Shown one piece after another: positions 3,555 to 27,414 of a stretch of 64,000 bases of DNA. A program made the translations under genes and the position numbers. The notes under the pieces are model-generated. The model was not told the origin of the DNA. It ran no database searches and saw only the letters and a list, made by a program, of their open reading frames with translations. This DNA is from an uncultured Acidobacteriota bacterium (lineage in GTDB: Bacteria > Acidobacteriota > Vicinamibacteria > Vicinamibacterales > Fen-181). The stretch lies in NCBI GenBank assembly GCA_963744445.1, contig CAVUTP010000001.1:276308-340307 (forward strand), in the 5' to 3' direction. Position 1 is the first letter of the stretch, and the number at the start of each line of letters is the position of its first letter.

Positions 3555-3646
3555 GGCGACTGAGAAGCGGGCAGCGGGCCGCCGTCAGCTTGCAGCGGAT
3601 CACGCTGTCACGCTGCGGGCTGCCAGCTGCCGGCTGCCGGCTAATC

Positions 3647-5494
3647 CTACGGCTGAATCCTGTCCGCATAGGCGAACACGGTCAGGTAGCCCATCTGGAT
3701 GATCTTCGTGAAAAGGTCGGCGTCAATCTTCTCGATGCTGTCGGTCGGCTGATGGTAGTCCGCGGTCATCGCCGCCATGTAGTAGACGAACGGGACCTTG
3801 ACCGACGCGAACGATGCATGGTCGGACCCGCCGCTGCCCACGCCCAGCGGGCTCTCGCGCAGGGCCAGGTCCAGGCCGACGTATTTGTTCATCTCCCGGG
3901 TGAGGGCCGCGAACTCGGTACCCGCGGTCAGGCTGACCGTCGCGTAGCGATTGCCGCGGATCTTCTTCACCGTCTCCTCCGCGCCGGCCACGTTGTACTG
4001 GCGGGTCGAGCGCGCCAGGTTCGCCTCGTCGAACGCGCGGCTGATCATGTCGTAGTTCAGGTAGCCCACGGTCTTCTCGATCGGGAACAGCGGATTGCGC
4101 ACGTAGTAGCGCGAGCCGTAGAGGCCCTTTTCCTCGCCGGTCCACAGCGCGAAGACGATGGTCCGCTTCGGCTTCACGGGGTTGGCGGCCATGGCCTTGG
4201 CAATCGCCAGCACGCCCACCGAGCCCGACCCGTTGTCGTCGGCGCCGTTGTAGATGTAGTCCTCCCAGCGGCCGGTGTGGTCGAAGTGCCCGCCGACCAC
4301 GAAGTACTCGCTCTTCAGCGTCGGGTCCGAACCCTCGATCATGCCGATCACGTTCATGCCGCGGACCAGCGTGGTTTTGGAGGTGGTGGCGACGGTCAGC
4401 TTCGCGCCGGGGATCTCCATCGACGCCGGCTTCATCGAGCTCTCGATCTTGCCCTTCAGGCCGTCGATCGTCTGGCCGGTCCCGTCGAGGATCGCGTTCG
4501 CGATCTCGCGCGTGATCGCCACCGACATGCCGCCCCCGCCGGGGCCGCCGGCCGGCGCGCCGTCACCGGCGATCGTCAGGCGCGTGCGCGGCCGGTTGAT
4601 GATCGGGCGCTCGTCGCTCGGACGCCGCACCATCGACAGGGCGTTGTAGACATCGGTGTCCTTTCCGCCGTTCGCGACGGTGACGATCGCCGCCGGCCCG
4701 AGCTTGGCGATCTCGGCAATCTTGTTGAACCGGGCAGGCCCGCCCTGGCCGCCGCGCCCCCCGACCGGCCCGGCCGGGAAGTACTTGTCCTTCAGCTCCG
4801 GCTTGGCCTGGAACAGCGACTTCGGATCGTCCTTGCCGGGCGCTTCCGTCAAGAGCATGACGATCTTGCCCTTCACGTCGAGGCCCTTCAACTCGTCGAA
4901 CCCGAGCGCCGGCTCGCTGATGCCGTATCCGACGAAGACGACAGGCGCCGCAACGGTTTCCGCCGCGCCGCTCCCGGCCTGGTAGTCCACGCCCGCCGTG
5001 AACGTCCGCGTCCTGGAGGATGCGCCGCTGCGTGTTTCCACGGTGATGGCGCTCTGGACGTCGGACGTCTCCTTGAAGGTGATCTCCTGGAAGTACGAGC
5101 GCTCGCGGGGCAGTGCCGGGGCGCCGCCGCGGCCGCCTCCCCCGCCGCCCATCATGCCGAAGCCGCCAGCCTGCGGCATGTCGCCCGCCGGCTTGATACC
5201 CCACATCTTGAACAGCGACACCGCGTAGTCCGCCGCCAGGGCGTAGCCCTTGGAGGCGGTATCGCGGCCTTCCATCCAGTCGGAGGCGATGAAACCAAGC
5301 ATCGCCATGTTCTCTCGGGCGGTAATCGCCTCGAACCCGGCCTTGTATTTCTCGGGCACGGGCTGCGGCGTCTGGACGAGGCTGAGGGCCTTCTGAACGT
5401 CTTCGAGCTTGAGCGGCTGCGGCGCTGGCATCTGCGCGCGGATCGCCAGCGAGGCGGTAACCATGAGGACGGCTAGGACGAGGCACTTTCGCAT
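3647..5494 (-). CDS. Secreted M28 family zinc aminopeptidase with PA domain
   Basis: Start at MRKCLVLAVLMVTASLAIRAQ (signal peptide). M28 metal-site motifs GADDNGSGSVGVLAIAK, WTGEEKGLYGSRYY and GGSDHASF. The upstream part of ORF 3647..6655 is antisense to secA and was rejected. Confidence 0.85.
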   Translation of the reverse strand: MRKCLVLAVLMVTASLAIRAQMPAPQPLKLEDVQKALSLVQTPQPVPEKYKAGFEAITARENMAMLGFIASDWMEGRDTASKGYALAADYAVSLFKMWGIKPAGDMPQAGGFGMMGGGGGGRGGAPALPRERSYFQEITFKETSDVQSAITVETRSGASSRTRTFTAGVDYQAGSGAAETVAAPVVFVGYGISEPALGFDELKGLDVKGKIVMLLTEAPGKDDPKSLFQAKPELKDKYFPAGPVGGRGGQGGPARFNKIAEIAKLGPAAIVTVANGGKDTDVYNALSMVRRPSDERPIINRPRTRLTIAGDGAPAGGPGGGGMSVAITREIANAILDGTGQTIDGLKGKIESSMKPASMEIPGAKLTVATTSKTTLVRGMNVIGMIEGSDPTLKSEYFVVGGHFDHTGRWEDYIYNGADDNGSGSVGVLAIAKAMAANPVKPKRTIVFALWTGEEKGLYGSRYYVRNPLFPIEKTVGYLNYDMISRAFDEANLARSTRQYNVAGAEETVKKIRGNRYATVSLTAGTEFAALTREMNKYVGLDLALRESPLGVGSGGSDHASFASVKVPFVYYMAAMTADYHQPTDSIEKIDADLFTKIIQMGYLTVFAYADRIQP

Positions 5495-5611: not shown

Positions 5612-5638
5612 TTCTGCATCTTGCATTCTGCATTCTGG
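5612..5638 (+). repeat. Heptamer tandem array TTCTGCA (about 3.8 units)
   Basis: TTCTGCA TCTTGCA TTCTGCA TTCTGG, ending 13 nt before the secA-like start codon. Confidence 0.9.
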
Positions 5639-5650
5639 TACCATCCCCTC

Positions 5651-8062
5651 ATGCCGTCCCGGCTCCGTGACCTGTATGTGCGCCTTGCCGGGATTCCCAT
5701 CCAGCACGACCTCACCCCCTACGTCGAGGGGCTGCGGGCCGTCGAGACGGCAGCCACGGGGCTCGAGGACGCCCCGGACGCGGACCTTCACGCCCGCGCC
5801 GTGCAGGCCCGCGACGAGGCTCGCGCCGGCCGCCCGCCCGACGACCTGCTGCCCGACGTCTTCGCCGTCGGCCGCGAGGCGTCGCGCCGCCTCCTGGGCC
5901 TGCGGCCGTTCGACGTGCAGGTCGCGGCGGCCATCGCCCTGCACCGCGGCCGCCTGGCGCAACTTGCCACGGGCGAGGGCAAGACGCTCGTTGCCGTGCT
6001 CCCGGCCATCCTCAACGCCCTCACCGGCCGCGGCGTGCACGTCTTCACCGCCAACGACTACCTCGCCGAACGCGATGCCGCCTGGATGGGCCCGCTCTAC
6101 CGGTTCTTCGGCGTCGAGCCCTCGTTTGTCGCGCAGGGTCTGGCCCGCGACGCACGCCGCCGGGCCTACGCCTCCGACGTGACGTACCTCACCGCGAAGG
6201 AGGCCGGCTTCGACTTCCTGCGCGACCACACGGCGACCAACGCATCCGACCTGGTCCAGCGGCCCTTCCACTACGTCATCGTGGACGAGGCGGACTTCAT
6301 CCTGGTCGACGAGGCGCGCGTGCCGTTGGTGATCGCGGGGGCGGCGCCGGACCTCGGGGTGAACCAGGCGGCGCTGGCCCAGGTCGTGCGGCAGCTCGCT
6401 CGCGGCGTGGACTTCGCCGCCGACGAGTACCAGCGCACGGTCGTCCTCACCGAGGCCGGCTTCCGCCACGCCGACCGGCTGCTCGGCGTCACTCTGTCGG
6501 CGCCCGAGCAGCACCTGCTGCTCAGCGCCCTCCACGTGGCGCTCCACGCGGAGGTCCTCCTCCGCCGCGACCGCGACTACATCGTCCGCGACGGCCGGAT
6601 CGAGCTGGTGGACGAATTCACGGGGCGGGTGGCCGACAACCGCCGCTGGCCGCACGGCATCCAGGCGGCGGTGGAAGCGAAGGAAGGGGTGGCGGTCAGG
6701 CCCGAGGGGAGGATCCTCGGCTCAATCCCGGTGCAGCACTTCGTGCGGCTCTACCCACGCGTCGCCGGCATGACGGCGACGGCCGTCGCGGCTGCGGAGG
6801 AGTTCCACGCCTTCTTCGGCCTGACCACCGTCGTCTTTCCGCCCAACCGGCCGTGCCGGCGAGACGACGCAGACGACGTGGTGTTCACGCACCGGGCGGC
6901 GAAGGAAGCGGCGCTGATCCAGGAGATCGCGGCAGCTCACGGGGCGGGGCGGCCCGTCCTGGTGGGCACGGCCAGTGTCGCCGAATCCGAGGCCCTGGCC
7001 GCGGCGCTGGCCGCCCGCGGCGTCGCCGGCGAGGTGCTGAACGCGCGCCACGACGCCCGCGAGGCGTCAATCGTGACGCGCGCCGGCGCGCCCGGCGCGA
7101 TCACGATCTCCACCAACATGGCCGGACGCGGCACCGACATCGTGCTGGGCGCCGGCGATCCCGAGGCGCGCGAACGGGTGGCCGGCCTGGGCGGCCTCTA
7201 CGTCATCGGCACCAACCGTCACGAGAGCCGGCGCATCGACGATCAGCTGCGCGGCCGCGCCGGACGCCAGGGCGATCCCGGCGCGTCGCGGTTCTTCATC
7301 AGCCTCGAGGACGATCTGATACGCCGCTACGGGGTGATGGAGCTGATTCCCAAGGCGCGTTGGCCGGCAGCGCGGGAGACCGCCGTCGACGACCCCCTCG
7401 TGCGGCGCGAGATCGCCCGCGCGCAGCGGATCATCGAGGGGCAGAACTTCGAGATTCGGAAGACGCTGTGGAACTACTCGGAGATGGTGGACGAACAGCG
7501 AAGGATGGTCCACGCGCGGCGGCAGGCGTATCTCCGCGGCGAGGCGGACCCGGGCGTCTGCCGCGAAGCAACACCGGAACACTACGAAACGCTCGCCGCG
7601 CAGGCGGGCGAGGAGCCCGTGCGCCGCGCCGAGCGGCGCATCGCAGTCGATGCCCTCGACCGCGCCTGGGCCGAACACCTCGCCCTGATCGAGGACATCC
7701 GCGAGGGCATTCACCTGCAGCGGTACGGCGGGAAGAACCCGATCACCGAGTTCCAGCGCCAGATCATCGGCGCCTTCGACGAGATGATGCAGCGTGTGGA
7801 CGACGAGACCGTCGAGGCGTTCGAGCGGCTGACCGTCGAAGACGGTGCGATCGACCTCTCCCGCGCGGGCCTCGGGAACTCCTCGGCCACCTGGACCTAC
7901 CTCGTCGACGACAACCCGTTCTCGCCGCTGGCCAGCTCGCTGCTCGCCAGCCGCACGCTCACCACCTCGGTCGCCATCCTCGGCGTCCTCTACTTCCCGA
8001 TCACGATTGCCACCGTGATCGGCGTCTTCTGGCGCCGCTGGCGCGGGAAGAAAGACGCGTAG
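5651..8062 (+). CDS. secA: SecA-family preprotein translocase ATPase, divergent short paralog with hydrophobic C-terminal tail
   Basis: Motor motifs ATGEGKTLVAVLP, VIVDEADFILVDEARVPLVI, GMTATA, TNMAGRGTDI and ESRRIDDQLRGRAGRQGDPG. 803 aa from MPSRLRDLY. Ends in a predicted TM segment, SVAILGVLYFPITIATVIGVFWRRWRGKKDA, in place of the usual Zn-finger tail. Confidence 0.85.
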   Translation: MPSRLRDLYVRLAGIPIQHDLTPYVEGLRAVETAATGLEDAPDADLHARAVQARDEARAGRPPDDLLPDVFAVGREASRRLLGLRPFDVQVAAAIALHRGRLAQLATGEGKTLVAVLPAILNALTGRGVHVFTANDYLAERDAAWMGPLYRFFGVEPSFVAQGLARDARRRAYASDVTYLTAKEAGFDFLRDHTATNASDLVQRPFHYVIVDEADFILVDEARVPLVIAGAAPDLGVNQAALAQVVRQLARGVDFAADEYQRTVVLTEAGFRHADRLLGVTLSAPEQHLLLSALHVALHAEVLLRRDRDYIVRDGRIELVDEFTGRVADNRRWPHGIQAAVEAKEGVAVRPEGRILGSIPVQHFVRLYPRVAGMTATAVAAAEEFHAFFGLTTVVFPPNRPCRRDDADDVVFTHRAAKEAALIQEIAAAHGAGRPVLVGTASVAESEALAAALAARGVAGEVLNARHDAREASIVTRAGAPGAITISTNMAGRGTDIVLGAGDPEARERVAGLGGLYVIGTNRHESRRIDDQLRGRAGRQGDPGASRFFISLEDDLIRRYGVMELIPKARWPAARETAVDDPLVRREIARAQRIIEGQNFEIRKTLWNYSEMVDEQRRMVHARRQAYLRGEADPGVCREATPEHYETLAAQAGEEPVRRAERRIAVDALDRAWAEHLALIEDIREGIHLQRYGGKNPITEFQRQIIGAFDEMMQRVDDETVEAFERLTVEDGAIDLSRAGLGNSSATWTYLVDDNPFSPLASSLLASRTLTTSVAILGVLYFPITIATVIGVFWRRWRGKKDA

Positions 8063-8065
8063 GAC

Positions 8066-8332
8066 TCAGTCCTTGCGTCTTCGGCCGGTGGCGGGCGAGA
8101 GATCGATCGACAGCGCGATGACGAGGCCGACGATGGGCCACAGGGTCCACTGGCCGGAGAACCAGTGCTGCACCGCGGTGTACCAGAGGAGCGTGGTGGG
8201 CAGGAAGATGAAGCCGATGACCGGCCAGAGGATCGTCGAGAACAGGCCCTGGAACCAGTTGGTGAGGAGCCACAGCAGGACGACAACCAGCCGCGGCGCC
8301 GCAAGCGAGAGGACGATGACAAGACAGGGCAT
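8066..8332 (-). CDS. Small integral membrane protein, unknown function
   Basis: 88 aa from MPCLVIVLSLAAPRLVVVLLWLL..., with three hydrophobic segments. GAGAGGAA ribosome-binding site upstream of the ATG at 8332. Confidence 0.55.
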   Translation of the reverse strand: MPCLVIVLSLAAPRLVVVLLWLLTNWFQGLFSTILWPVIGFIFLPTTLLWYTAVQHWFSGQWTLWPIVGLVIALSIDLSPATGRRRKD

Positions 8333-8352
8333 AGGGTTCCTCTCAGACGGCC

Positions 8353-8386
8353 AGGGCTCAAGGCTCAGGCTCACGGATTCTCAGGC
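8353..8386 (+). repeat. Heptamer-like tandem array GGCTCA(R)
   Basis: GGGCTCA AGGCTCA GGCTCAC GGATTCT CAGGCCC, lying between the ROK-like stop and the start of the small membrane protein gene. Confidence 0.6.
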
Positions 8387-8402
8387 CCAGGTCGGATGCG
8401 GC

Positions 8403-9854
8403 TCAGGGCGCTCGGCGCGCGGCCGGCAGGCTGGCTGCCGCGACGGCCTGCCCCACCCGGCGGCTCTTCTCGTCCGGAAGGTTGATGCGGGCCCGCGCTG
8501 CGACATCCGGGTACTCGGCCGCGAGCACTGCCTTCGCCCTCGACAGGATCAAATCGCCGCCCGACCCGCTCGTCACGCGCCCGAGGATCAGCACGTGCTT
8601 CAGCTCGTAGAATTCCGCGTACAGGCCGAGCGCGTAGCCGAGATACACGCCAATCGCATCCCAGACGCGGCGCGCCGCCGGATCGCCGGCTTCCAGGCGC
8701 TCCTGCACGGTCTTGAGCCGCTCGGCGAGGCCCAGCCGGCCGTCAACCGGGATGCCGCCGATCGGCGCAAGGCGGAACACGGCCTGCTGGCTGAAGTAGT
8801 TCGCACCCACGCCGCGATCGCCGCTCCACTCGTCCACGGGACCGTCGGGATCGAGATCCACGGGAGCGAACGCGAGCTCGTTCAGCCAGGACGTGATCTC
8901 GCCGCCCGGCGTGACGTAACCCGCCGCCTGGCTGGAGCCGAGCGCGATCCCCAGCACCGGCTGATCCTCGAGGCTCATCGCGCCGGCCAGCGCCGTCACT
9001 TCCCCGTCGTTCACCACGTCGAAGGGCACGCCGCCCCAGGCCTTCTGCAGCTCGAAGAACAGGTTGGCCGTGCGCGCCTCGAACAGATCCTTCGGGATGC
9101 CGCGGAAGAGCGAGCCGACCCTCGGGCGGTTGCCGATGTACACGCCCGCCGAGCTACCGCCGATCGCGTCCACCCGCGGCAGGTGGGCTGCAGCCGAGCG
9201 CAGCGCCTTCATCAGCTCGTCGTAGTGATACTGCGGGTCGGTGGCGCCTCGCGGGTCCCACGCGACCTCCTCGGTGAAGATCGGCGTGCCGTCCACGACC
9301 GCCGAGACCTTCCGGTCGCTGGCGCCGAGGTCGAACCCGATCCGGCAGCCTTCGAGGTGGCCGCCCAGCGCGACGGTGCTCTCCTCGGCGGCAGGCAGCG
9401 ATGCCTCGTCTACCGCTTCCACCGTGAAGGGGTGGCCGTAAACGCCGCTCATGAAGGCGTGGTCGAACGCCCGGGCGCCGTCCGCCGAGTAGATCGCCTT
9501 CAAATGGTCCGCGACCCCACCGGGCGCCGACACGAGCACGCGCCACCCGCCCCGCGACCAGAGCAGGAACTTCACGATCCGCTCGGCGTACTCGAAATTC
9601 AGGCCCGCCTCCGGGTGGTCCGCCGGGAGGCATGTCGTGTCGAAGCGGGAGACGGCGCCGCCGCCGCGCTCGATCGCGAGGCAGAGCCGGGCGGGACGGC
9701 CACTGGCCGCGGCCTTCTCCCGCAGGCCTCTCAACGCCAGGCCGAGCGGTCGGAAACCAGGGTGGAGTTCAGGACTGAAGCGAGGCGCGGAAAGAGCATG
9801 AAGTGCGGGCATAACGGTTGTCCGTCGGCCAGGGTCAGCGGCGGCGACGGCCAA
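8403..9854 (-). CDS. ROK/ASKHA-superfamily sugar-kinase-like protein with about 170-aa N-terminal extension
   Basis: Actin-fold ATPase motifs GFDLGASDRKV, VVNDGEVTALAG and GIALGSSQAAGYV. The start is uncertain (9854 or 9812). The ROK zinc CxCGxxGC motif was not seen. Confidence 0.6.
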   Translation of the reverse strand: MAVAAADPGRRTTVMPALHALSAPRFSPELHPGFRPLGLALRGLREKAAASGRPARLCLAIERGGGAVSRFDTTCLPADHPEAGLNFEYAERIVKFLLWSRGGWRVLVSAPGGVADHLKAIYSADGARAFDHAFMSGVYGHPFTVEAVDEASLPAAEESTVALGGHLEGCRIGFDLGASDRKVSAVVDGTPIFTEEVAWDPRGATDPQYHYDELMKALRSAAAHLPRVDAIGGSSAGVYIGNRPRVGSLFRGIPKDLFEARTANLFFELQKAWGGVPFDVVNDGEVTALAGAMSLEDQPVLGIALGSSQAAGYVTPGGEITSWLNELAFAPVDLDPDGPVDEWSGDRGVGANYFSQQAVFRLAPIGGIPVDGRLGLAERLKTVQERLEAGDPAARRVWDAIGVYLGYALGLYAEFYELKHVLILGRVTSGSGGDLILSRAKAVLAAEYPDVAARARINLPDEKSRRVGQAVAAASLPAARRAP

Positions 9855-9916
9855 CCGGAGCGGCGCCGCGGCTCGGAAGGTAGCGGAGAGCCTGGGCGGA
9901 TGTCAAACGGAACTGA

Positions 9917-10297
9917 CTACTTGTCCCTGCAGGCCGGCGCCGGGAAATTGCGCATCGTGTAGCGCGTCCCGCCCTTCGGCGTCGGGTTCGGCATCTTCGG
10001 GTCGACTTCCGCCGGGTCCACGAAGATGAGCGTCATCCCGCAGACCACCTTCGTGCGCGGCTTCTTGGCGACCGGCTCGTTCTGCTTGGGCTCCGGGATG
10101 ATGCGCGACTGCCCGCCCTCCGGTTCGGCCTTCAACTGTCCGGAGAAGAGCTTCGAATACGGGCCGGACTGAGGCGTCGAGGGCAGAGACAACTGGACGG
10201 CAGGCCCAGGCCTGGCCGGGGGTTGGACTTTCGACACCTGGGCGGCAACACCCACGGGCACCGCGACCACCACGGCAGCGAGGAGCGGGATGTACAT
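9917..10297 (-). CDS. Small secreted protein, unknown function
   Basis: 126 aa from MYIPLLAAVVVAVPVGVAAQ (signal peptide), with a GGAGGA ribosome-binding site upstream of the ATG at 10297. The remainder of ORF 9917..10894 is antisense to the 2Fe-2S gene. Confidence 0.6.
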   Translation of the reverse strand: MYIPLLAAVVVAVPVGVAAQVSKVQPPARPGPAVQLSLPSTPQSGPYSKLFSGQLKAEPEGGQSRIIPEPKQNEPVAKKPRTKVVCGMTLIFVDPAEVDPKMPNPTPKGGTRYTMRNFPAPACRDK

Positions 10298-10407
10298 GAC
10301 GCGTCCTCCACTCGCTTTAGACGAACGGGGGCCGGAACCAGTCTGCCACAAGAGCAGGGCTGAAGGCCTGCCCCTTCCGAGCGCCAGGCAACGGTCCCCG
10401 CCTCCGG

Positions 10408-10442
10408 CATTCCACATTCTGCATTGTGCATTCTGCATTCCG
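10408..10442 (+). repeat. Heptamer tandem array GCATTCT (5 units; same family as TTCTGCA)
   Basis: GCATTCC ACATTCT GCATTGT GCATTCT GCATTCC, 35 nt upstream of the 2Fe-2S subunit start codon. Confidence 0.9.
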
Positions 10443-10477
10443 AGGGGTAGACTCCGCCTATCCAAAAGGAGCTGCGG

Positions 10478-10951
10478 ATGCGCGATCTGTCCTTCACGCT
10501 GAACGGCAAGCCGACACGCCTCACGGTGGATCCCGGGCGCATGCTGCTCTGGGTTCTGCGCGACGACCTTGGACTCACGGGGACGAAGTTCGGGTGCGGC
10601 CAGGCGGTCTGCGGCGCGTGCACCGTGCTGGTGAACAACCAGGCGGTGACGTCGTGCAGCACGACGGTCGGCGAGGTCGAGGGGAAGCAGGTGCTGACGA
10701 TCGAGGGCCTGGCGAAGGACGACCGGCTGCACCCCATCCAGCAGGCCTTCGTCACGCACAACGCCTTCCAGTGCGGCTACTGCACGCCCGGCATGATCCT
10801 CGGGGCCTACGCCCTGCTGCTGAAGAACCCGAAGGCCACGCGGGCCGACATCGTCCGCCAGCTCGACTCGCACCTGTGCCGGTGCGGCGCGCACGAGCGC
10901 GTCGTGCGGGCGGTCGAGAGCGCGGCGTCGTCGAAAGGGGGCGCACGATGA
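10478..10951 (+). CDS. (2Fe-2S)-binding small subunit of a xanthine-dehydrogenase/aldehyde-oxidase-family oxidoreductase (IorA/CoxS-like)
   Basis: Two [2Fe-2S] cysteine clusters, GCGQAVCGACTV and QCGYCTPGMI...CRCG. ATGA overlap with the large subunit gene. Confidence 0.9.
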   Translation: MRDLSFTLNGKPTRLTVDPGRMLLWVLRDDLGLTGTKFGCGQAVCGACTVLVNNQAVTSCSTTVGEVEGKQVLTIEGLAKDDRLHPIQQAFVTHNAFQCGYCTPGMILGAYALLLKNPKATRADIVRQLDSHLCRCGAHERVVRAVESAASSKGGAR

Positions 10952-13128
10952 ATCCCCACGACCTCGATAAGGACCACGAGCTGGTGGACGAGGGTCCGAT
11001 GGCCTTCCCCGTCGACCGCCGCGACTTCCTCCGCAGCGGCGCGGCCGGCCTGTTCGTGCTGTTCTTCGTGGACCGCGCGGGAGCGCTGCAGGAGCCGGCC
11101 CGGCTGCCCGCCGGGCGCCAGGGCTACCCCACCGACTTCAACGCCTACCTGCACGTGAAGGCGGACGGCCGCGTCACCTGCCTGGTGGGCAAGATCGAGA
11201 TGGGCCAGGGTGTCTCTACCTCGCTGGCACAGCTGCTGGCGGAGGAGATGGACGTCCCGCTCACATCGGTGGACATCATCCTCGGCGACACCGACCTGTG
11301 CCCGTGGGACATGGGCACCTTCGGTTCGCTCAGCATCCGGCAGTTCGGCCCGGTCCTCAAGGATGCGGCGGCCGAGGCGCGCGCGGTCCTCCTGCTGATG
11401 GCGGCGGAGCGGCTCCAGGTGCCTGCCGAACGCCTGGCGGTGAAGGCGGGCGTGATCAGCGACAGGGCCGACCCGAAGAAGTCGGTGAGCTACGCCGCGC
11501 TCACGCAGGGCCAGCGCATCGAGCGCCACCTCGGGACGAAGCCCACTCTCAAACCGCTCGCCTCTTACAGCGTGGTGGGGACCTCGGCGCCGCGTCGCGA
11601 CGCGCTCGAGAAGGTGACGGGGCGCGCAAAGTTCGCCGGCGACATCGTCCCGCCGGGCGGCGCGCTGCACGCGCGCATCCTGCGTCCCCCGGCACACGGC
11701 GCCGTGCTCGCGTCGGTGGATACCTCCGCCGCCGAGAAGATGGCCGGCGTTCGCGTGGTTCGCGACGGCGACATGGTGGCGGTGCTCCACGAACACCGGG
11801 ACGAGGCCGATCGCGCGCTGGCCGCCGTGAAGGCGGAGTTCACGCGGCACGACCCGCCGGTTGACGACAAGACGATCTTCGAGCACCTGGTGAAGGCCGC
11901 CCCGGCCCCTCAAACCCCCGCGCAGGGCGGGACGCTGGCGAGCGGCGAGGCGGCGGCCACGGCGGTCCTGGAGCAGACATGGCTCGACGGCTACGTGGCG
12001 CACGCCCCCATGGAACCGCACGCCGCGGTGGCGGCGGTGGAGGGCGGCAAGGTGACGGTCTGGGCCGGGACGCAGACGCCGTTCTCGCTCAAGAACCAGG
12101 TGATGCAGGGCCTGAAGCTGCCGGCCGAGAAGGTGCGCGTCATCACCGCGTACGTGGGCGGCGGGTTCGGCGGCAAGTCGGCCTCCAGGCAGGGCGTCGA
12201 GGCGGCGCGGCTGGCGGTCCTCACCGGCAGACCGGTGCGCGTGCAGTGGAGCCGGGAGGAGGAGTTCTTCTACGACACCTTCCGGCCGGCGGCGGTGATC
12301 AAGATCAGGTCCGGCCTCGACGCGTCGAAGCGCATCGCATTCTGGGACTACGACGTCGTGGCGGCCGGCGAACGGGGGGCCGCGCACTTCTACGACATCC
12401 CCCACCACCGGACGGTGGTCCGGGGCGGCTGGAGCGGAGGGCAGACGGCTGGATTCCACCCCTTCGCTGTCGGCCCCTGGAGGGCACCCGGCGCCAGCAC
12501 CAACGCGTTCGCGCGGGAGTCGCAGATCGACATGCTCGCCGCGCGGGCTGCGATGGACCCGGTGGAGTTCCGGCTGAAGAACCTCACGGACCAGCGGATG
12601 ATCCGCGTGGTGAACGCGGTGGCCAAGAAGGCGGGCTGGACGCCCAAGCCGCTACCGAGCGGCCGCGGCGTCGGGATCGCGTGCGGCATCGACGCCGGCA
12701 CCTACGCCGCGGTCGTGGCCGAAGTGGCAGTGGACAAGAAGACGGGCCGGGTGCAGGTCACCCGCCTGGTGTGCGCACAGGATATGGGCGTGGTCGTGAA
12801 CCCGGAGGGCGCTCTTCAGCAGATCGAGGGGTGCCTGACCATGGGCCTGGGGTACACGCTCACCGAGGAGGTGCACTTCAAGGGCGGTGAGGTCCTCGAC
12901 CGCAACTTCGACAGTTACGAGCTGCCGCGCTTCTCGTCGCTGCCGAAGCTCGAGACGGTCATCATCGACGCGCCCGAGGTGCCGGCACAAGGCGGAGGGG
13001 AGCCGGCCATCGTCCCGGTGGGCGCCGCCATCGCCAACGCCATCTTCGACGGCAGCGGCGCGCGCCTCTTCCGCATGCCGATGACCCCGGAACGCGTGCA
13101 GGAGGCGCTCGGGAGGGTTGCACGCTAG
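10948..13128 (+). CDS. Molybdopterin-binding large subunit of the same oxidoreductase (IorB-like), Tat-type signal
   Basis: Start at MNPHDLDK, with twin-arginine region VDRRDFLRSGAAGLFVLFFV. 726 aa with aldehyde-oxidase/xanthine-dehydrogenase-like blocks (GKIEMGQGVSTSLAQLLAEE, GGGFGGKS, GEPAIVPVGAAIANAIFDGSG). Confidence 0.85.
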   Translation: MNPHDLDKDHELVDEGPMAFPVDRRDFLRSGAAGLFVLFFVDRAGALQEPARLPAGRQGYPTDFNAYLHVKADGRVTCLVGKIEMGQGVSTSLAQLLAEEMDVPLTSVDIILGDTDLCPWDMGTFGSLSIRQFGPVLKDAAAEARAVLLLMAAERLQVPAERLAVKAGVISDRADPKKSVSYAALTQGQRIERHLGTKPTLKPLASYSVVGTSAPRRDALEKVTGRAKFAGDIVPPGGALHARILRPPAHGAVLASVDTSAAEKMAGVRVVRDGDMVAVLHEHRDEADRALAAVKAEFTRHDPPVDDKTIFEHLVKAAPAPQTPAQGGTLASGEAAATAVLEQTWLDGYVAHAPMEPHAAVAAVEGGKVTVWAGTQTPFSLKNQVMQGLKLPAEKVRVITAYVGGGFGGKSASRQGVEAARLAVLTGRPVRVQWSREEEFFYDTFRPAAVIKIRSGLDASKRIAFWDYDVVAAGERGAAHFYDIPHHRTVVRGGWSGGQTAGFHPFAVGPWRAPGASTNAFARESQIDMLAARAAMDPVEFRLKNLTDQRMIRVVNAVAKKAGWTPKPLPSGRGVGIACGIDAGTYAAVVAEVAVDKKTGRVQVTRLVCAQDMGVVVNPEGALQQIEGCLTMGLGYTLTEEVHFKGGEVLDRNFDSYELPRFSSLPKLETVIIDAPEVPAQGGGEPAIVPVGAAIANAIFDGSGARLFRMPMTPERVQEALGRVAR

Positions 13129-13133
13129 AGATA

Positions 13134-13174
13134 GTGCTGGAGGTGCCGAAGGTGCTGCAGGCTGGAAGTGCCGG
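13134..13174 (-). repeat. GCACCTYC-type 9-nt-period array (reverse orientation)
   Basis: GTGCTGGAGGTGCCGAAGGTGCTGCAGGCTGGAAGTGCCGG is the reverse complement of the family at 13541-13658 and 22258-22353. Confidence 0.8.
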
Positions 13175-13195
13175 AGCGGGCCGTTGAACGATGGG

Positions 13196-13233
13196 TCCGG
13201 CCGCCGCGGGTGCGAGCCCTGACGGCGGCCGGA
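13196..13233. terminator. Stem-loop between convergent genes (11-bp perfect stem, 16-nt loop), possible bidirectional terminator
   Basis: TCCGGCCGCCG, a 16-nt loop, then CGGCGGCCGGA. No clear U-tract. Confidence 0.35.
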
Positions 13234-13254
13234 GCGTTCAGACGGGGACAGGGT

Positions 13255-13422
13255 TCAGTTGCTGGTGGCTTCGGCCCTCTTCGCCTGGAGGGCCAGCCGC
13301 GCCCGGAGGATCGAGCACCAGTCCTTGTGATTCTCGACCGGCATCCCGCACTCGACGCACACCCGCACGCGCTTTGCCGGCTCGCTCGCCTTGCCCCCGA
13401 AAATCTTGCTCAGCAACGACAT
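13255..13422 (-). CDS. Small Cys-containing protein (possible zinc knuckle), unknown function
   Basis: 55 aa, MSLLSKIFGGKASEPAKRVRVCVECGMPVENHKDWCSILRARLALQAKRAEATSN. GGAGG ribosome-binding site 6-8 nt upstream of the ATG at 13422. CxxC...H...C spacing. Confidence 0.5.
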   Translation of the reverse strand: MSLLSKIFGGKASEPAKRVRVCVECGMPVENHKDWCSILRARLALQAKRAEATSN

Positions 13423-13540
13423 TGTCCGACCTCCGGTGAAGCGGGCCCGCGGCCCGTTTGCTTCATAAGACGGACCCAGAGAGGAAATGGTTCGCTTCGG
13501 GCTCATCCGAATCGCTCATCTGCGGCCGCCCACAGCTTTC

Positions 13541-13658
13541 CAGCACAGCTCCTCCAACACAGCACCTCCAGCACTCAGCACCCGAGGCGCCCCCAGCACG
13601 TCCAGCACCCAAGCACAGCACCTCCAGCACCTTCGGCACCCCGGCACCTCCAGCACCT
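13541..13658 (+). repeat. CAGCAC / GCACCTCCAGCAC low-complexity array
   Basis: At least 8 CAGCAC cores, including GCACCTCCAGCAC three times, within the 385-nt gap between the small Cys protein gene and the receiver gene. Confidence 0.85.
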
Positions 13659-13808
13659 CGTCTTCGCCCTGTTGAGACTGTCCGCAGGCTGTCCGTGGTT
13701 GCCCGGGGAACGCCGGTCCGCTAACATCGAGGGCTGCCCTTCAGCCATACTGTTCCAGCGGTAGAAATCACGGCCACGCCGGCCAATCGGGATCAGGAGC
13801 GACCGAGC

Positions 13809-14198
13809 ATGAATGCAGGTGCCCGAGTGCTCATCGTGGACGACGACCGGGACACGCTGACCCTGTACGCCTTCGCGCTCGGCGATTCGGGTTTGCTCGT
13901 GGACCAGGCCACGACCGGCGCGGAGGCCCTGGCAGCTGCACGGGCGCACCCCCCCGCGGTGATCGTGACGGATTTGACTCTCCCCGACGTCGATGGCATC
14001 GAGCTGTGCCGGGAGCTGCGGGTGGCGGCCGGTCCCGGCCTGTCGGGGCTGATCGTGCTGAGCGGCACCTCGGACGCCGGGCAGCACGATCGCGCGCGCC
14101 GGGCTGGCGCGACCGAGGTGCTGACCAAGCCGTGCCTGCCGGCTGACCTCGAGGGCGTCATCCGCGCGGCGCTCTCTTCCGCGGAATCGGGAGGCTAG
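13809..14198 (+). CDS. Stand-alone response-regulator receiver (CheY-like) protein
   Basis: 129 aa with receiver-domain signatures VLIVDDD, VIVTDLTLPDVDG, LSGTSD and LTKP. No output domain. Confidence 0.85.
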   Translation: MNAGARVLIVDDDRDTLTLYAFALGDSGLLVDQATTGAEALAAARAHPPAVIVTDLTLPDVDGIELCRELRVAAGPGLSGLIVLSGTSDAGQHDRARRAGATEVLTKPCLPADLEGVIRAALSSAESGG

Positions 14199-14203
14199 GG
14201 CCG

Positions 14204-15052
14204 GTGACGCCAGCGGCGCGGGGTGTTCTCCCGCCCACCACCTCTCGAACCGCGCTTGGTGCGGATCACACCGCCGCCGCGGCTCCCCCTCTGAAGTGGG
14301 CCGGCGGCAAACGGTGGCAGCTGCCGCATGTCGAGGCGCTGTGGCGGCCGCACGAGGCCCGCAGGCTGGTGGAGCCCTTCTGCGGCGGCCTCGCCGTGAC
14401 GTTGGGACTCAGGCCCCGCGCCGCGCTCCTCAACGACGCCAACCCGCACCTGATCAACTTCTACCGCTGGCTCGCCAGCGGCCTCACGCTCGACATCCCG
14501 CTGGAGAACGACGAGAACGCGTTCTACCGTCACCGCGAGCGGTTCAACGCGTTGTTGACCGCGGGCGGCGAGCGCACCCGCGAGGCGGCCTCGCTGTTCT
14601 ACTACCTGAATCGCACCGGCTACAACGGGCTCTGCCGCTTCAACAGCCGCGGCGAGTTCAACGTCCCGTTCGGGCGCTACGATCGAATCCGCTACCGCCG
14701 CGACCTCTCCGCCTACGCGCCGGTTCTCGGGGAATGGACCTTCACCGCCGGCGACTTCGAGCTCATTCCCGCCGAGCCGGAGGATTTCGTCTACGCCGAC
14801 CCCCCATACGACGTTCCGTTCACGGCCTACGCGCGCGGCGGATTCGGGTGGGACGACCAGGTCCGGGCCGCCCGCTGGGCCGCCCGCCACCCCGGCCCCG
14901 TCATCCTCGTCAACCAGGCGACCGATCGCATCCTCGAACTGTACGAATCTCTCGGCTTCGCGCTGCGCGTCCTCCCCGCACCCCGCCGCATCAGCTGCAA
15001 CGGAGACCGCCGCCCCGTGATGGAAGTCATGGGAACACGGAACGTCGCGTAG
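14204..15052 (+). CDS. dam: DNA adenine methyltransferase, Dam (D12 class, GATC-type) family
   Basis: PLKWAGGKRW, motif I EPFCGGLAV, YYLNRTGYNGLCRFN, and catalytic motif IV YADPPY. GTG start 5 nt after the receiver gene, with a GGGAGG ribosome-binding site. Confidence 0.85.
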   Translation: MTPAARGVLPPTTSRTALGADHTAAAAPPLKWAGGKRWQLPHVEALWRPHEARRLVEPFCGGLAVTLGLRPRAALLNDANPHLINFYRWLASGLTLDIPLENDENAFYRHRERFNALLTAGGERTREAASLFYYLNRTGYNGLCRFNSRGEFNVPFGRYDRIRYRRDLSAYAPVLGEWTFTAGDFELIPAEPEDFVYADPPYDVPFTAYARGGFGWDDQVRAARWAARHPGPVILVNQATDRILELYESLGFALRVLPAPRRISCNGDRRPVMEVMGTRNVA

Positions 15053-15086
15053 GGATCGGGGATCAGGGTTCGGGGATCAGGGGTTC
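15051..15086 (+). repeat. Heptamer tandem array (A/G)GGGATC / AGGGTTC (5 units) carrying three GATC sites
   Basis: AGGGATC GGGGATC AGGGTTC GGGGATC AGGGGTTC, beginning inside the dam stop codon. GATC sites at 15054, 15061 and 15075. Confidence 0.9.
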
Positions 15087-15101
15087 CGCCTCCCTCGCGG
15101 C

Positions 15102-15127
15102 TTCTGCATTCTGCATTTTGCATTTCC
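15102..15127 (+). repeat. Heptamer tandem array TTCTGCA (about 3.7 units)
   Basis: TTCTGCA TTCTGCA TTTTGCA TTTCC, 26 nt upstream of the APC permease start codon. Confidence 0.9.
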
Positions 15128-15153
15128 GCCCGCCCGTCGTACCCTGACTGCCC

Positions 15154-16482
15154 ATGGCCCAGCTGCGCCAGCGCCTGACGCTGTTCGACATGACGATGAT
15201 TGCGATCGGCGGCACAATTGGCTCGGGGATCTTCCTCACCCCGTCGCTCATCGCCCACGCCCTGCCGTCGCCCGTGCTCATCCTGTCCGTCTGGCTTGCC
15301 GGCGGGCTGATGGCCATGGCCGGCGCGCTGACCTTCTCCGAGCTCGCGGCCTTGATGCCGCGCGCGGGCGGCCAGTACGTGTACCTGACCGAGGCGTACG
15401 GCGGACTCGTCGGCTTCCTCTTCGGCTGGGCCTACTTCCTCGTCTGCAACGCGGGCGGCCTCGGCGCGCTCAGCGTCGCCTTCGCGACCTACTTCGGGTA
15501 CTTCGTCCCCCTCGGAGCCACCGGGACCAAGCTCGTCGCCATCGGCGGCCTCCTCCTGCTGACCGGCATCAACGTCGTCGGCGTCAAGGCGGGGGCGATC
15601 TTCTCCGACGTGTTCACGGTCCTGAAGATCGGCGGGATCCTCGCCCTGGTGGTCGTGGGCCTCGCGCTCGGCTCGGCGCAGACGACCGACTTCGCGGCCG
15701 CGATCCCGGAAGTGCCGGGCGGCCTCGGGGGAGCCCTGGCGGCCGCGATGGTGGGCGTCCTCTGGTCCACGGGAGGCTGGCAGCACGCGACTTACGCCTC
15801 GGGCGAGATCAAGAACGCGCGCCGGACGCTCCCGCTCGCGATGGTGATCGGCACCGCCGCCGTGACCGTGATCTACCTCTCGGTAAACGTCGCCTACATG
15901 TTCCTCCTGACCCCGCAGGAAATTGCGGTGTCGCCCCGCGTGGCGGCCGACGCGGTGAGCCGCGTGCTCGGTCCGACAGGGGGCACGTTGATCTCACTCG
16001 CCATCTTCATCTCGACGTTCGGGGTCGTGGGAATCTACACGCTGACCGCCCCGCGCATCTACTTTGCCATGGCGAACGACGGGCTCTTCTTCCGGCGGGT
16101 GGCCGAGGTGCACCCCCGCTTCGAGACCCCCGCCTTCGCCATCGTCGCGCAGTCGCTGTGGGCGGTGGTACTGATCCTCTTCTGGGGCACCTTCGAGAAC
16201 CTGATCTCGTACGTCGTGTTCACCGACTGGATCTTCTTCGGCCTGGCCGCGGCGGCCGTGTTCGTCTTCCGGCGCCGCTGGCCCGATGCCGAGCGCACGG
16301 CGCGGGTGCCGCTCTACCCCCTGACGCCGCTCTTCTTCGTCGCCATGTCGGCGTGGTTCGTCGGCATGACGCTCGTCCAGCGCCCGGCGCAGGCATGGGC
16401 GGGGCTGGCGTTCCTCGCGCTCGGTGTTCCCGTCTATTTCTACTGGAAAGGGAAGCGTTCCGAATTGAGAATTGAGAATTGA
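15154..16482 (+). CDS. APC-family amino acid permease
   Basis: 442 aa, about 12 TM, N-terminal signature MTMIAIGGTIGSGIFLTP. The last residues (SELRIEN) and the stop codon are encoded by a GAATTGA heptamer array. Confidence 0.85.
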   Translation: MAQLRQRLTLFDMTMIAIGGTIGSGIFLTPSLIAHALPSPVLILSVWLAGGLMAMAGALTFSELAALMPRAGGQYVYLTEAYGGLVGFLFGWAYFLVCNAGGLGALSVAFATYFGYFVPLGATGTKLVAIGGLLLLTGINVVGVKAGAIFSDVFTVLKIGGILALVVVGLALGSAQTTDFAAAIPEVPGGLGGALAAAMVGVLWSTGGWQHATYASGEIKNARRTLPLAMVIGTAAVTVIYLSVNVAYMFLLTPQEIAVSPRVAADAVSRVLGPTGGTLISLAIFISTFGVVGIYTLTAPRIYFAMANDGLFFRRVAEVHPRFETPAFAIVAQSLWAVVLILFWGTFENLISYVVFTDWIFFGLAAAAVFVFRRRWPDAERTARVPLYPLTPLFFVAMSAWFVGMTLVQRPAQAWAGLAFLALGVPVYFYWKGKRSELRIEN

Positions 16483-16486
16483 GAAG
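16462..16486 (+). repeat. Heptamer tandem array GAATTGA (3.6 units)
   Basis: GAATTGA GAATTGA GAATTGA GAAGC. It supplies the last codons and the TGA of the permease gene, and ends 4 nt before the corrinoid gene ATG. Confidence 0.9.
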
Positions 16487-16490
16487 CAGA

Positions 16491-17142
16491 ATGTCGATCG
16501 ACAACGAGCTGCGGAACGCGGTGGTCGAGGGCGACGGCGCGGCCGCGGTGCGCCTGGTGCGGCAGCTCCTGGAGCGCGGAACGCCGGCCGACGCCATCCT
16601 GCAACGGTGCCTGGTCGCCGCCATGGACGAGGCGGGGCGCCGCTTCGAGGCGGGCGAGTTCTTCGTGCCGGAGCTGCTCGTGGCAGCCCGAGCCATGAAG
16701 GCCGCGATGGCCGTCCTCGATCCGCTGCTCGCCGGAACGGCGTCGCGCGCCGCCGGCCGCATCGCGATCGGCACGGTGCAGGGCGATCTGCACGACATCG
16801 GGAAGAACCTGGTGGCGACGATGCTCCGCGGAAGCGGCTTCGACGTGGTGGACCTCGGGTCGGACGTCACGCCCGAGCGCTTCGTCGCGGCAGCGCGGGA
16901 CGGCGCTCAGCTCATCGGCCTCTCGGCCTTGCTGACGACCACCATGCTCTCCATGAAGGAGGCGATCGTCCGCCCTCGACGCGGCCGGCCTGCGGCCGGG
17001 AGTCCGCGTGATGGTCGGCGGCGCCCCCCTGACGCCGCAGTATGCCCAGAGCATCGGCGCCGACGGGTTCGCCGACAACGCGGCCGCCGCCGTGACCCTG
17101 GCGCGCCGGCTGCTGGCCCAGTCGGCGGAGGCCTCCCGATGA
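16491..17142 (+). CDS. Cobalamin (B12)-binding corrinoid protein (MtaC/MtbC-like), frame broken near 16970
   Basis: B12-binding motif GDLHDIGKN plus LSALLTTTM in the first frame. The conserved end, ALDAAGLRPGVRVMVGGAPLTPQYAQSIGADGFADNAAAAV, is in the +1 frame and ends with TGA at 17140-17142. The span is not a multiple of 3. Confidence 0.8.
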
Positions 17143-18216
17143 CCGGCCGCGAACGCGTGCTGCTGGCCATGCGCCGACGGCAGCCCGATCGCCCGCCGTT
17201 CGACTTCTCGTGGGGCTTCTCGGAACCGCTCCTGGATCACTTTCGGGAGCGGACGGGCGCGGACAACCCCGACGACTACTTCGGGGCCGACACCAGGATC
17301 GTGCGAATCTCGCCCACCCGGCGGCCGTCCGACTTCTCGCCCTACCACTCGGAACTGCCGCCCGGCACCTGGCTGGACGAGTGGGGCGTGGGACACCAGC
17401 CGACCACGAGCCGCGAGCGCCATCACTCGCACCTCGAGGGTTTCATCTACCCGATGCTCGGGCTGTCTTCGCGCCAGGACGCGATGGACTACCCGCTGCC
17501 GGACGTGGACGCCGACTACCGGTACGAAGCGCTTCCCTGCCGGATTGGCGGAGATCCAGGGAGCGGGCCTCGCGGTCATGGCCGCCCTCGACTGCACGGT
17601 GTTCGAAGTCGCCTGGTACATGCGCAGCATGGAGCAGTTGCTGATGGACTTTGCCGACGGCAGCGAGTTCGCGGCAAGCCTCCTCGACCGCATCACGGCC
17701 AAGCGCGAGGTGCAGGCGGCGCGGTTCGCGGAACTCGGTGCCGACGTCATCTGCCTGGGCGACGACGTGGGGACGCAGCGCGGGATGTTGATGAGCGTCC
17801 GGATGTGGCGCGCGTGGCTCAAGCCTCGCCTGGCCCGCGTGGCGGCGGCGGCGCGGCGGGTGCGCCCGGACGTCCTGCTCTTCTACCACAGCGACGGCAA
17901 CGTCGCGGCCATCGTCCCGGACCTGATCGAGATCGGGATCGACATCCTCAACCCGGTCCAGCCGGAGTGCATGGACCCCGCCGCGCTGAAGTTTCAGTAC
18001 GGGGATCGCCTGTCGCTCTGGGGCACCATCGGGACGCAGTCCACCTTCCCGTTCGGCAGCGCCGAGGACGTGCGGGCAGAGGTCCGTGCCCGCATCGACA
18101 AGGCCGGCCGCGGGGGTGGCCTGTTCCTCGCGCCCACTCACATCGTCGAACCCGAGGTCCCGTTCGAGAACATCGTGGCGTTCGTGGAAGCGGTCAAGGC
18201 AGGCCAGCAGGGCTGA
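17139..18216 (+). CDS. Uroporphyrinogen-decarboxylase-family methyltransferase (MtaA/CmuA-like), frame broken near 17535-17541
   Basis: N-terminal part MTGRERVLLAMRRRQPDRPPFDFSWGF..., with an ATGA overlap to the corrinoid gene. The C-terminal part is in the frame of ORF 17545..18216 (AEIQGAGLAVMAALD...GDDVGTQRGMLMS...DILNPVQPECMD). Confidence 0.75.
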
Positions 18217-18326
18217 AGCCCTGCTCCGACCGATGCAACGGGGCCGAAGCGACGGCGAAAGTGGATGCGGCGCGGGGCTTTCTCGGTGTAACCTATCTGG
18301 CTGCCCTCGGTAGTTCCCTCTGGAGA

Positions 18327-20280: not shown

Positions 20281-20301
20281 CAGGATTCAGGATTCAGGAT
20301 A
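20281..20301 (+). repeat. Heptamer tandem array CAGGATT (3 units)
   Basis: CAGGATT CAGGATT CAGGATA, between the TRAP binding-protein stop and the TRAP permease start. Confidence 0.9.
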
Positions 20302-20352
20302 CCGGGCCCGACGTGACTACGCTGCCCTCCCGTGGGGCCCACACACGCTCCG

Positions 20353-27329: not shown

Positions 27330-27341
27330 GGGGGGATTATA

Positions 27342-27383: not shown

Positions 27384-27414
27384 GGACGAGCGCCCAAGCG
27401 TGGATCTCCGTTTT

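Follow-up and report, generated by a model that had tools for sequence, protein, structure and literature searches.

Tandem heptamer arrays with a strand polarity at gene boundaries of a GC-rich metagenomic DNA stretch

At least 11 arrays of tandemly repeated heptamers are found in a 64-kb stretch of DNA with a GC content of 70% that was recovered from a metagenome and derives from an uncultured bacterium; we refer to this whole stretch as the window. The arrays sit at the edges of genes and do so with a strand polarity, the purine-rich strand having its 5' end at the gene irrespective of whether the gene starts or stops there. Reports of tandem heptamers in bacterial genomes go back to 1990. 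Those described here are not a new phenomenon but members of a widespread heptanucleotide class that includes the long simple sequence repeats (SSRs) surveyed by Mrazek, the STRR heptamers of cyanobacteria and the GGGAATC and TAACTGA repeats. The class now extends to an uncultured lineage of 70% GC known from a metagenome, and G-tract-free units (ATTCTGC, ATTCTCA and ATTCTCC), present in many phyla, follow a boundary and polarity rule that had been published for G-rich repeats. The window adds arrays that are placed upstream of -10-like boxes of what appear to be near-leaderless genes. The explanation that we favor, with a probability of roughly 45%, is that slippage makes the arrays, that selection at the level of transcripts sets their polarity, that paired arms insulate and that single arrays serve as generic filler upstream of the -10 box.

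Heptamer arrays in the window and their polarity

Arrays were called with Tandem Repeats Finder (TRF) at a period of 7, giving copy numbers between 2.9 and 6.4, and our own second scan of the window for tandem periods from 4 to 12 agrees with the calls. The arrays are real and non-random. The pattern ATTCNNNATTCNNNATTC, that is, ATTCNNN three times over with at most one mismatch, has 14 matches in the window as compared with 0.02 expected from shuffles, and for ATTCNNNATTC the corresponding numbers are 13 and 0.38. Among the periods scanned AT-rich tandem arrays occur at period 7 only. An independent contig (ERZ25039545 contig_96827, ENA) that is 98.8% identical to the window over 20 kb carries the arrays at 5612, 10407, 15051/15102 and 20281, four of them identical base for base and the fifth with scattered single-base changes only, typical of that noisier contig, so that no collapse of the arrays is seen in a second assembly. 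Motif excess, period-7 specificity and the second assembly together rule out chance or an assembly artefact as the origin of the arrays.

In the window 11 of 11 intergenic arrays have the 5' end of the purine-rich strand within 0-37 nt of a gene boundary, be it a start or a stop, and the far side of each is either more distant from any gene or forms the loop of a pair. The sense strand is pyrimidine-rich in arrays that precede starts and purine-rich in arrays that follow stops. Because the purine-rich strand, in which G exceeds C, faces the gene with its 5' end, RNA running towards a gene is pyrimidine-rich and G-poor and RNA leaving a gene is purine-rich and C-poor. A GAAT/ATTC core was considered as the defining feature and dropped in favor of purine/pyrimidine strand composition, since CAGGATT arrays have ATTC on the purine-rich strand and yet fit the composition rule, and since unrelated heptamers obey it too.

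Three arrays of one family lie just before plus-strand start codons, as a sequence-only reading of this DNA had noted: TTCTGCA x3.7 at 5612-5637, with a pyrimidine-rich sense strand, 13 nt before ATG 5651 of a SecA-like gene; GCATTCT x4.9 at 10407-10440, 37 nt before ATG 10478 of a gene for a 2Fe-2S subunit; and TTCTGCA x3.3 at 15102-15124, 29 nt before ATG 15154 of an amino-acid permease gene. A fourth start-proximal array, ATTCTCC/ATTCTCA x6.4 (GGAGAAT on the plus strand), occupies 27342-27386 with its sense on the minus strand, 12 nt before GTG 27329, where it forms the 3' arm of a long hairpin. The sequence-only reading had placed this array before a minus-strand kinase gene, and it is right about the array and its position; the minus-strand open reading frame (ORF) at 27329, however, shows only a PDZ domain by Pfam, which we used for the domain assignments of window genes, and the kinase domain lies in the overlapping ORF 23827-26115. 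It also holds that the TTCTGCA, GCATTCT and ATTCTCC arrays are AT-rich against their background, with 56-65% AT in a window of 70% GC. These four sites are correct, but the arrays at 3566-3598 and 3612-3642, 15051-15082, 16462-16485, 20281-20300, 27423-27455 and 60202-60231 had been missed, and the claim that the arrays always lie on the coding strand fails at 16462-16485 and, in the minus-strand reading, at 27423-27455, where the orientation is the opposite, purine-rich one.

The first of these two exceptions, GAATTGA x3.4 at 16462-16485 (+), has a purine-rich sense strand, encodes the permease C-terminus (...SELRIEN) together with its stop codon and ends 5 nt before ATG 16491 of a gene with a B12-binding domain. 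Tandem repetition of GAATTGA places TGA in all three frames. CAGGATT x2.9 at 20281-20300 (+) follows by 12 nt the TAG at 20268 that closes an ORF downstream of the DctP domain, and lies 31-52 nt before the DctQM start. The array AGGGATC/GGGGATC/AGGGTTC x4.6 at 15051-15082, G-rich on the plus strand, begins at the stop codon of a Dam-like methyltransferase gene and contains five G-tracts of 3-4 G spaced by 3-4 nt, so that it is capable of forming a G-quadruplex; it is convergent with the array at 15102-15124, yet the two are not complementary. The methyltransferase gene (14204-15082) is of the D12 class of N6-adenine methyltransferases and leads directly into the G-rich array GGGATCGGGGATCAGGGTTCGGGGATC, which itself contains three GATC sites in a span of 30 nt. 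Ten of the 11 window arrays are intergenic or overlap a stop codon. GGATTCA/GGAATCA x4.3 at 60202-60231 (+) lies in frame within a GT4 glycosyltransferase gene and forms the linker between its two domains. Within 60199-60262 (+) the linker encoded by this array reads RDSGFRNQESG, and downstream of the array there is a palindrome, GTCACGCGTGAC, as well as a short array-complementary CTGAATCC. A recent or large insertion as the source of this array is ruled out by a linker of similar length in solved homologues.

Two convergent pairs form hairpins whose stability we compared with that of shuffles. In the first, AGCGGGC x4.7 (3566-3598, +) and GCTGCCG x4.4 (3612-3642, +), both GC-rich, constitute the 5' and 3' arms; the former is 11 nt away from where a minus-strand gene starts (3554), the latter 4 nt away from the stop (3647) of a minus-strand M28 peptidase gene. 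The minus-strand hairpin 3555-3650 has a folding energy of -49.5 kcal/mol (z -2.5). In the second, the 5' arm is an array on the minus strand at 27423-27455, which reads GAATTGA/GAATCGA x4.7 on the sense strand (ATTCTCA family), overlaps the stop of a PhoU-like gene and is inverted relative to the array at 27342-27386; the resulting hairpin 27335-27465, again on the minus strand, folds with -51.9 kcal/mol (z -6.7). Unit, arm length and loop vary between the pairs, and no target-site duplications were seen in the pairs and loci inspected. The search of the single window arrays for hidden hairpin partners gave folding z-scores near 0, and these arrays are thus truly unpaired. An Rfam scan of the window returned no match and no RNA gene. 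Classical intrinsic (Rho-independent) terminators are ruled out as an identity for the arrays, the stem-loops being without a T-run. The order stop, hairpin, -10-like box, start also recurs in Thermoanaerobaculia (L092), Tepidisphaerales (L055) and others.

Between the start-proximal arrays and the start codons lie -10-like hexamers. Reading of the sequence together with a scan for TANNNT gives TACCAT at 5639-5644 (+), 1 nt after the array and 6 nt before ATG 5651; sequence reading gives TAGACT at 10448-10453 (+), located 7 nt downstream of the array and ahead of a leader of ~18-24 nt with AAGGAG, as well as TATAAT at 27336-27341 (-), which directly adjoins the array 6 nt before GTG 27329. The scan and the orthologues point to TACCCT at 15140-15145 (+), 8 nt before ATG 15154, and TACGCT at 20318 (+) is located before the DctQM start, downstream of the CAGGATT array. 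The arrays end 0-17 nt before TANNNT, and the distance from hexamer to start is 6-8 nt in four of the five cases. A TANNNT at 5-9 nt from the start is present for 4/5 array-bearing starts as compared with 2/41 other genes (Fisher p 4e-4), a control for which alternative in-frame starts were allowed; most of these 41 genes have Shine-Dalgarno-type leaders or lie inside operons. Ahead of the permease ATG, by 8-10 nt, (TG)nTAnnnT is conserved in the orthologous loci L121-L129 and L193, and this extended -10-like motif (TGnTAnnnT) in the GC-rich orthologues suggests leaderless or near-leaderless mRNA in the lineage. We infer that the array-bearing genes would have near-leaderless promoters, with the arrays falling in the -35/upstream promoter DNA because TANNNT is located between array and nearby start codon. 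Since the arrays abut -10-like boxes, any role that they have would be played at the level of DNA and promoter, or on read-through transcripts, rather than in the gene's own 5' untranslated region (5' UTR), and a 5' UTR role, one of those proposed in the sequence-only reading, is unlikely in the window. The GAATTGA-type arrays (16465-16492 and 27348-27376, +) match a sigma-70 pattern as well, TTGAGA, 16-17 nt, GAGAAT/CAGAAT, as the distance from -35 to -10 is that of three units plus 2 nt. A sigma-70-like promoter inside these arrays was treated as a by-product of the repeat, as it would fire away from the adjacent gene.

Recurrence across genomes and turnover between relatives

In order to place the window arrays among those of other bacteria, public genomes were searched, one genome per species, with three copies of ATTCT[GC][AC] (ATTCTSM), which returned at least 119 loci (824 kb), so that the arrays are not confined to the window. 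Each of these loci was picked for containing one ATTCTSM heptamer array, and gene calls in them are our own and rough, ~84% of the DNA being coding. All numbers from this set, here and below, are those among the matches listed. Carriers are found in cyanobacteria, Bacteroidota, Clostridia, Acidobacteriota (Vicinamibacterales, Thermoanaerobaculia, Blastocatellia), Planctomycetota, Verrucomicrobiota, Chloroflexota, Methylomirabilota, candidate phyla and proteobacteria, with GC contents of the loci ranging from 30 to 72%, and the GC-rich counterparts are mostly Acidobacteriota and Planctomycetota. Comparison of the window with these 119 loci by tblastx yielded distant hits only, of 49% identity at most, the best one being to a Thermoanaerobaculia MAG. 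Period 7 dominates, with 322 heptamer arrays and at most 14 of any other period, and in more than half of the 322 the unit bears no relation to that of the query. A comparison set not picked for repeats, 532 kb of loci encoding permease orthologues (the permease query gave 80 orthologous metagenome loci), still has period 7 as the commonest, with 15 arrays vs at most 7 for any other period.

The position and polarity seen in the window recur in this larger set, in agreement with the proposal in the sequence-only reading that both are non-random. Although most of the DNA is coding, 286 of the 322 arrays are intergenic, and the median distance from array to gene boundary is 13-20 nt. The 5' side of the purine-rich strand is nearer the gene for 89 ATTC-type arrays vs 21 (p 4e-11) and, for the other heptamer arrays, in a ratio of 61 to 21 (p 1e-5); single arrays taken by themselves give 67:21. 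Convergent pairs hold 25 arrays and divergent pairs 2. Within 0-40 nt of starts, ATTC-sense arrays number 28 vs 9, GAAT-sense arrays being far from the next start, and roughly two thirds of the boundary-adjacent arrays face a stop codon rather than a start. Near starts the sense strand of the arrays is G-poor (11% G), with start codons in 13 arrays on this strand vs 37 on the other and Shine-Dalgarno-like motifs in 2 vs 12; at stops it is C that the sense strand has little of (9% C), and stop codons are more frequent on it. ATTCTSM units have no G-tract. What the arrays have in common thus points to strand composition, purine-rich for RNA leaving a gene and pyrimidine-rich for RNA entering one.

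A relative syntenic with the window at 86-89% nucleotide identity (L121) establishes that the arrays turn over. The GAATTGA array at the permease stop has 4.9 copies there vs 3.4 in the window, and the CAGGATT array after the DctP-region stop is present with the same unit at the same site. The GGGATC and TTCTGCA arrays that precede the permease gene in the window are absent, with CCACTAG x2 in their place beside the same -10 box and ATG, and the 9-mer repeat that follows a CoxL-like gene in the window corresponds to GGGGTCA and TCCGCCT arrays in the relative. More distant permease orthologues keep the -10-like box before the ATG and have no array there. Because copy number and unit differ between the two relatives, turnover, presumably by slippage, is clearly at work, contrary to the sequence-only reading, which had set a functional role against slippage; and because orthologous promoters keep the -10 and the start while lacking the array, its sequence is labile and not required for the promoter.

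Other long heptamer arrays were seen in GC-rich relatives: ACACAGG x6 with an inverted partner (L193 14043-14130), GGGATTC/GGGGTTC x7 (L175 14970-15018), TAGGCGA x9 (L168 655-716) and CTGCCTG x11 (L134 3-81). Inspection by eye of mid-GC loci (L184-L187 and L174) reveals AT-rich heptamer-like runs directly before the permease ATG, such as ACTGAAC ACTGATC ACTGAAA in L186 and AAATCAA-type runs in L184 and L185.

Known systems and the weighing of explanations

A GC-rich host of heptamers is known in Xanthomonas, with ~65% GC. The repeats of Rehm 2015 (PMC4692102), GGGAATC from Xanthomonas and GGGGA(C/T)T from Nostoc, have 2-26 and usually 2-6 units, with 89-93% of them intergenic and ~40% in convergent inverted pairs, the gene being almost exclusively nearer on the 5' side of the G-rich strand. 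Length and sequence differed between two Xanthomonas species, the neighboring genes had no functional theme, no association with mobile elements was seen and no function was found; G-quadruplexes were proposed. Like the GGGAATC repeats, the window arrays have 7-bp units, an intergenic bias, the strand and position rule, convergent pairs, turnover and a GC-rich host, and the array at 15051-15082 is of the GGGNATC type of that study. It is the only window array with the G-tracts of this subfamily; most of the others (TTCTGCA, GAATTGA, GGAGAAT, CAGGATT) have none, so that a quadruplex is not possible, and, unlike those of the GGGAATC system, window arrays abut -10-like boxes of putative near-leaderless genes; their host is also unlikely to be a xanthomonad. 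MacGregor 2015 (PMC4679880) reported TAACTGA repeats in marine Beggiatoaceae, cyanobacteria and Bacteroidetes, with 2-6 copies that are mostly intergenic and lie in one orientation just before starts, some overlapping the end of the upstream ORF; most end 1 to a few nt before starts without a ribosome-binding site, one inverted pair was found, the genes that follow are not related to each other, the repeats occur patchily among taxa, and a translational regulator was suggested. The start-proximal window arrays are likewise direct heptamer repeats in one orientation before unrelated genes. The TAACTGA repeats were read as 5'-UTR elements, whereas in the window the units differ, the gaps of 12-37 nt contain a -10-like hexamer, and many arrays follow stops or are paired.

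As summarized in the papers citing it (PMC4692102 and PMC4679880), Mrazek 2007 found heptanucleotides to be the commonest class of long SSRs in many genomes, GC-rich Burkholderia, Actinobacteria and Xanthomonas included, with polymerase slippage proposed as the origin and 7 nt suggested to be the stretch of DNA that the polymerase holds. This is a survey category, and the summaries mention neither a polarity rule nor a link to promoters. Both the Xanthomonas repeats and, to the extent that it is summarized there, this survey contradict the statement in the sequence-only reading that no equivalent was known for GC-rich soil phyla; its comparison with the STRR heptamers did point to the right class. 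In the description given by a citing paper, STRR heptamers of Calothrix PCC 7601, a heterocystous cyanobacterium, are dispersed and mainly intergenic, with several unit families per genome. Unlike the window, STRR hosts are low- to mid-GC cyanobacteria, and 70% GC is inconsistent with such a host. The STRR units CCCCAGT, TTGGTCA and CAACAGT are not among the arrays that TRF called in the window. ATTCTSM arrays do occur in Nostoc, Okeania, Moorena and Crocosphaera as well, and a Nostoc preprint has other heptamers near promoters and starts.

The contingency SSRs of phase-variable genes in Haemophilus, Neisseria and Moraxella are also short tandem repeats near promoters or starts that are resized by slippage. 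They differ in having units of 1-5 nt (heptamers are rare) and in lying in coding sequence or in the -35/-10 spacer of surface and virulence genes, where a change in length switches expression, whereas the window genes are housekeeping, the arrays are upstream of the -10 or after stops and lengths are equal in two near-identical assemblies; moreover, a 7-bp change in an array that abuts a -10 box leaves the proximal sequence unchanged. REP/BIME elements and bidirectional terminators resemble the paired arrays in being stem-loops right after stops, and the arrays, purine/A-rich in the 5' arm and pyrimidine/T-rich in the 3' arm, have the polarity of bidirectional terminators, but the window stems are built of tandem heptamers, contain neither a U-tract nor a conserved REP sequence, and many arrays are unpaired. 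The heptameric direct repeats of SARP-type sites in Streptomyces have an 11-bp periodicity next to the -10 box, unlike the contiguous window units with their 7-bp period. Literature searches with the exact window heptamers returned primer sequences only, and nothing on mechanism newer than the 2015 papers was found.

In the explanation that we favor slipped-strand mispairing would create, resize and replace the arrays, the turnover itself being observed, and selection at the level of transcripts would retain one polarity only. Before a start, such selection would favor a sense strand that has few start codons or Shine-Dalgarno-like motifs and that stays unfolded; behind a stop, further stop codons in each of the three frames can come from the array. 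With a convergent partner a hairpin of ~50 kcal/mol would form, probably ending or insulating the upstream transcript right before the -10 box of the next gene. Single arrays would most likely be generic filler, AT-rich, unstructured and tolerated at -35, rather than specific binding sites. A number of points weigh against this explanation. Slippage accounts for neither period 7 nor polarity, and no copy-number difference exists between the window and the 98.8%-identical contig. The terminator scan found no U-tract or T-run at either window hairpin, and the -10 boxes, leaderless starts and terminator or insulator activity are deduced from sequence only. Behind the polarity statistics are rough gene calls and loci picked by one heptamer family, although errors in calling ORFs would act against the polarity rule and not in its favor, and the sense-strand motif counts are not independent of polarity itself. 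Finally, the spread along the chromosome is uneven: ten arrays are located between 3.5 and 27.5 kb of the window, and the 10 kb adjoining its start on the upstream side (L201 11096-21095) contain no heptamer array.

Several other explanations have to be considered, and the hypotheses on function are narrowed rather than settled. That the arrays are neutral by-products of slippage without any function, simply occupying DNA where they cause no damage, their polarity reflecting only the removal of harmful orientations, is unlikely, although it has to be taken seriously: sequence and copy number change quickly, both closer and more distant orthologous promoters do without arrays, single arrays are unstructured, and the adjacent genes share no function, just as in Rehm 2015 (PMC4692102) and MacGregor 2015 (PMC4679880). 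Neutral repeats, however, might lie anywhere in a spacer, whereas these hug gene boundaries; the excess of convergent over divergent arrays, the retention of some array sites in relatives whose flanks have diverged and the recurrence of the stop-hairpin-(-10)-start layout in several phyla argue in the same direction. A sequence-specific role, with the arrays as -35 or UP elements of promoters or as tandem sites for a regulator, had been put forward in the sequence-only reading and is now rather improbable. The arrays do lie at about -13 to -50 from the presumed start sites, variant units give hexamers with TTG at 15118 and 10424, 16 and 18 nt ahead of the -10, and AT-rich DNA upstream of promoters is known to stimulate transcription, as in UP elements. 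Yet at 5621 the TTG hexamer has a spacing of only 12 nt to its -10 box, each gene has a unit of its own (TTCTGCA, ATTCTCC, CAGGATT), consecutive sites with a 7-bp period would not lie on one face of the helix, and the same families occur after stops, in hairpins and in coding sequence; the permease orthologues, which keep the -10 and the start with either no array or an unrelated heptamer, tell against such specificity as well.

It is very unlikely that the arrays are part of the 5' UTR and are bound there by an RNA-binding protein, be it S1, a cold-shock-domain protein or CsrA, through which translation would be tuned. A cold-shock domain covers ~7 nt and prefers single strands rich in T and C, and the sense strand of the arrays near starts is G-poor and unstructured. 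Many ATTC-sense arrays of other taxa have their end 0-20 nt before the start codon, and MacGregor, who proposed such a role for TAACTGA, found the same closeness to starts lacking a ribosome-binding site (PMC4679880). Against this stand the -10-like hexamer between array and start at 4/5 window genes, which would leave the array outside the gene's own transcript, and the preponderance of stops among the boundaries that the arrays face. The inverted pairs look like extragenic palindromes, and identical heptamers are found in very distant phyla, as would be the case for remnants or copies of a small MITE- or REP-like mobile element with inverted ends built of heptamers; but in the pairs and loci inspected there is no common internal sequence and no target-site duplication was seen, arm lengths and units vary, single arms are commoner than pairs, Rfam gives no match and Rehm 2015 (PMC4692102) saw no association with mobile elements, leaving little room for this origin. 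G-quadruplexes, as proposed by Rehm for GGGAATC and GGGGA(C/T)T, would fit the array at 15051-15082 with its five G-tracts, but are scarcely tenable as a general explanation. The TTCTGCA, GAATTGA, GGAGAAT and CAGGATT arrays have no GGG on either strand and follow the same position and polarity rule, and since the ATTCTSM arrays of many phyla, which are without G-tracts, obey it too, the G-quadruplex is not the common denominator; in its general form this proposal is already refuted.

A broader possibility, improbable on present evidence, is that heptamer arrays of any sequence are a cross-phylum boundary element with a single polarity rule, the G-poor, pyrimidine-rich strand always reading into the adjacent gene, and that they are read by a conserved factor that contacts ~7 nt of single strand, so that the period of 7 would come from the factor and not from slippage. 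Candidate readers would be cold-shock-domain proteins, or Rho loading on C-rich, G-poor RNA. If this were true, the arrays would serve to protect genes against transcription coming in from outside or to prepare initiation, independently of any potential for G-quadruplexes. Culturable carriers of heptamer arrays such as Xanthomonas or Nostoc exist.

Neighboring genes and a second repeat family

Several of the genes next to the arrays have irregular reading frames. The PDZ-domain ORF 25788-27329 (-) overlaps, in a different frame, the ORF 23827-26115, which has a protein kinase domain and weak matches to sigma-70 regions 2 and 4, and 23827-27329 (-) is one multidomain gene with a frameshift or else a pair of genes that overlap. 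The B12-binding-domain gene 16491-17300 appears frameshifted near 16950, with the domain going on in another frame, and L121 is without ~1.7 kb corresponding to window 16621-18285. The DctP solute-binding domain is complete in the ORF 18926-20215 (+), and a C-terminal tail conserved in L121 (...EFRAKP..AKPAK*) continues in another frame and ends at 20268, suggesting a frameshift or a sequencing error.

The window also contains repeats of a second family, whose units of 9 bp (CAGCACCTC / GGCACCTYC, or GAGGTGCTG as the reverse complement) are present in up to 12 copies, at 13130-13170 (+), 13531-13659 (+) and 22276-22353 (+). The repeat at 13130 begins directly behind the stop of the CoxL-like gene, its G-rich strand pointing out of that gene, and that at 22276-22353 extends to the stop of a minus-strand gene. 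The 141 nt at 13525-13665, which span the third copy, are C-rich, G-poor and nearly unstructured (-19 kcal/mol).

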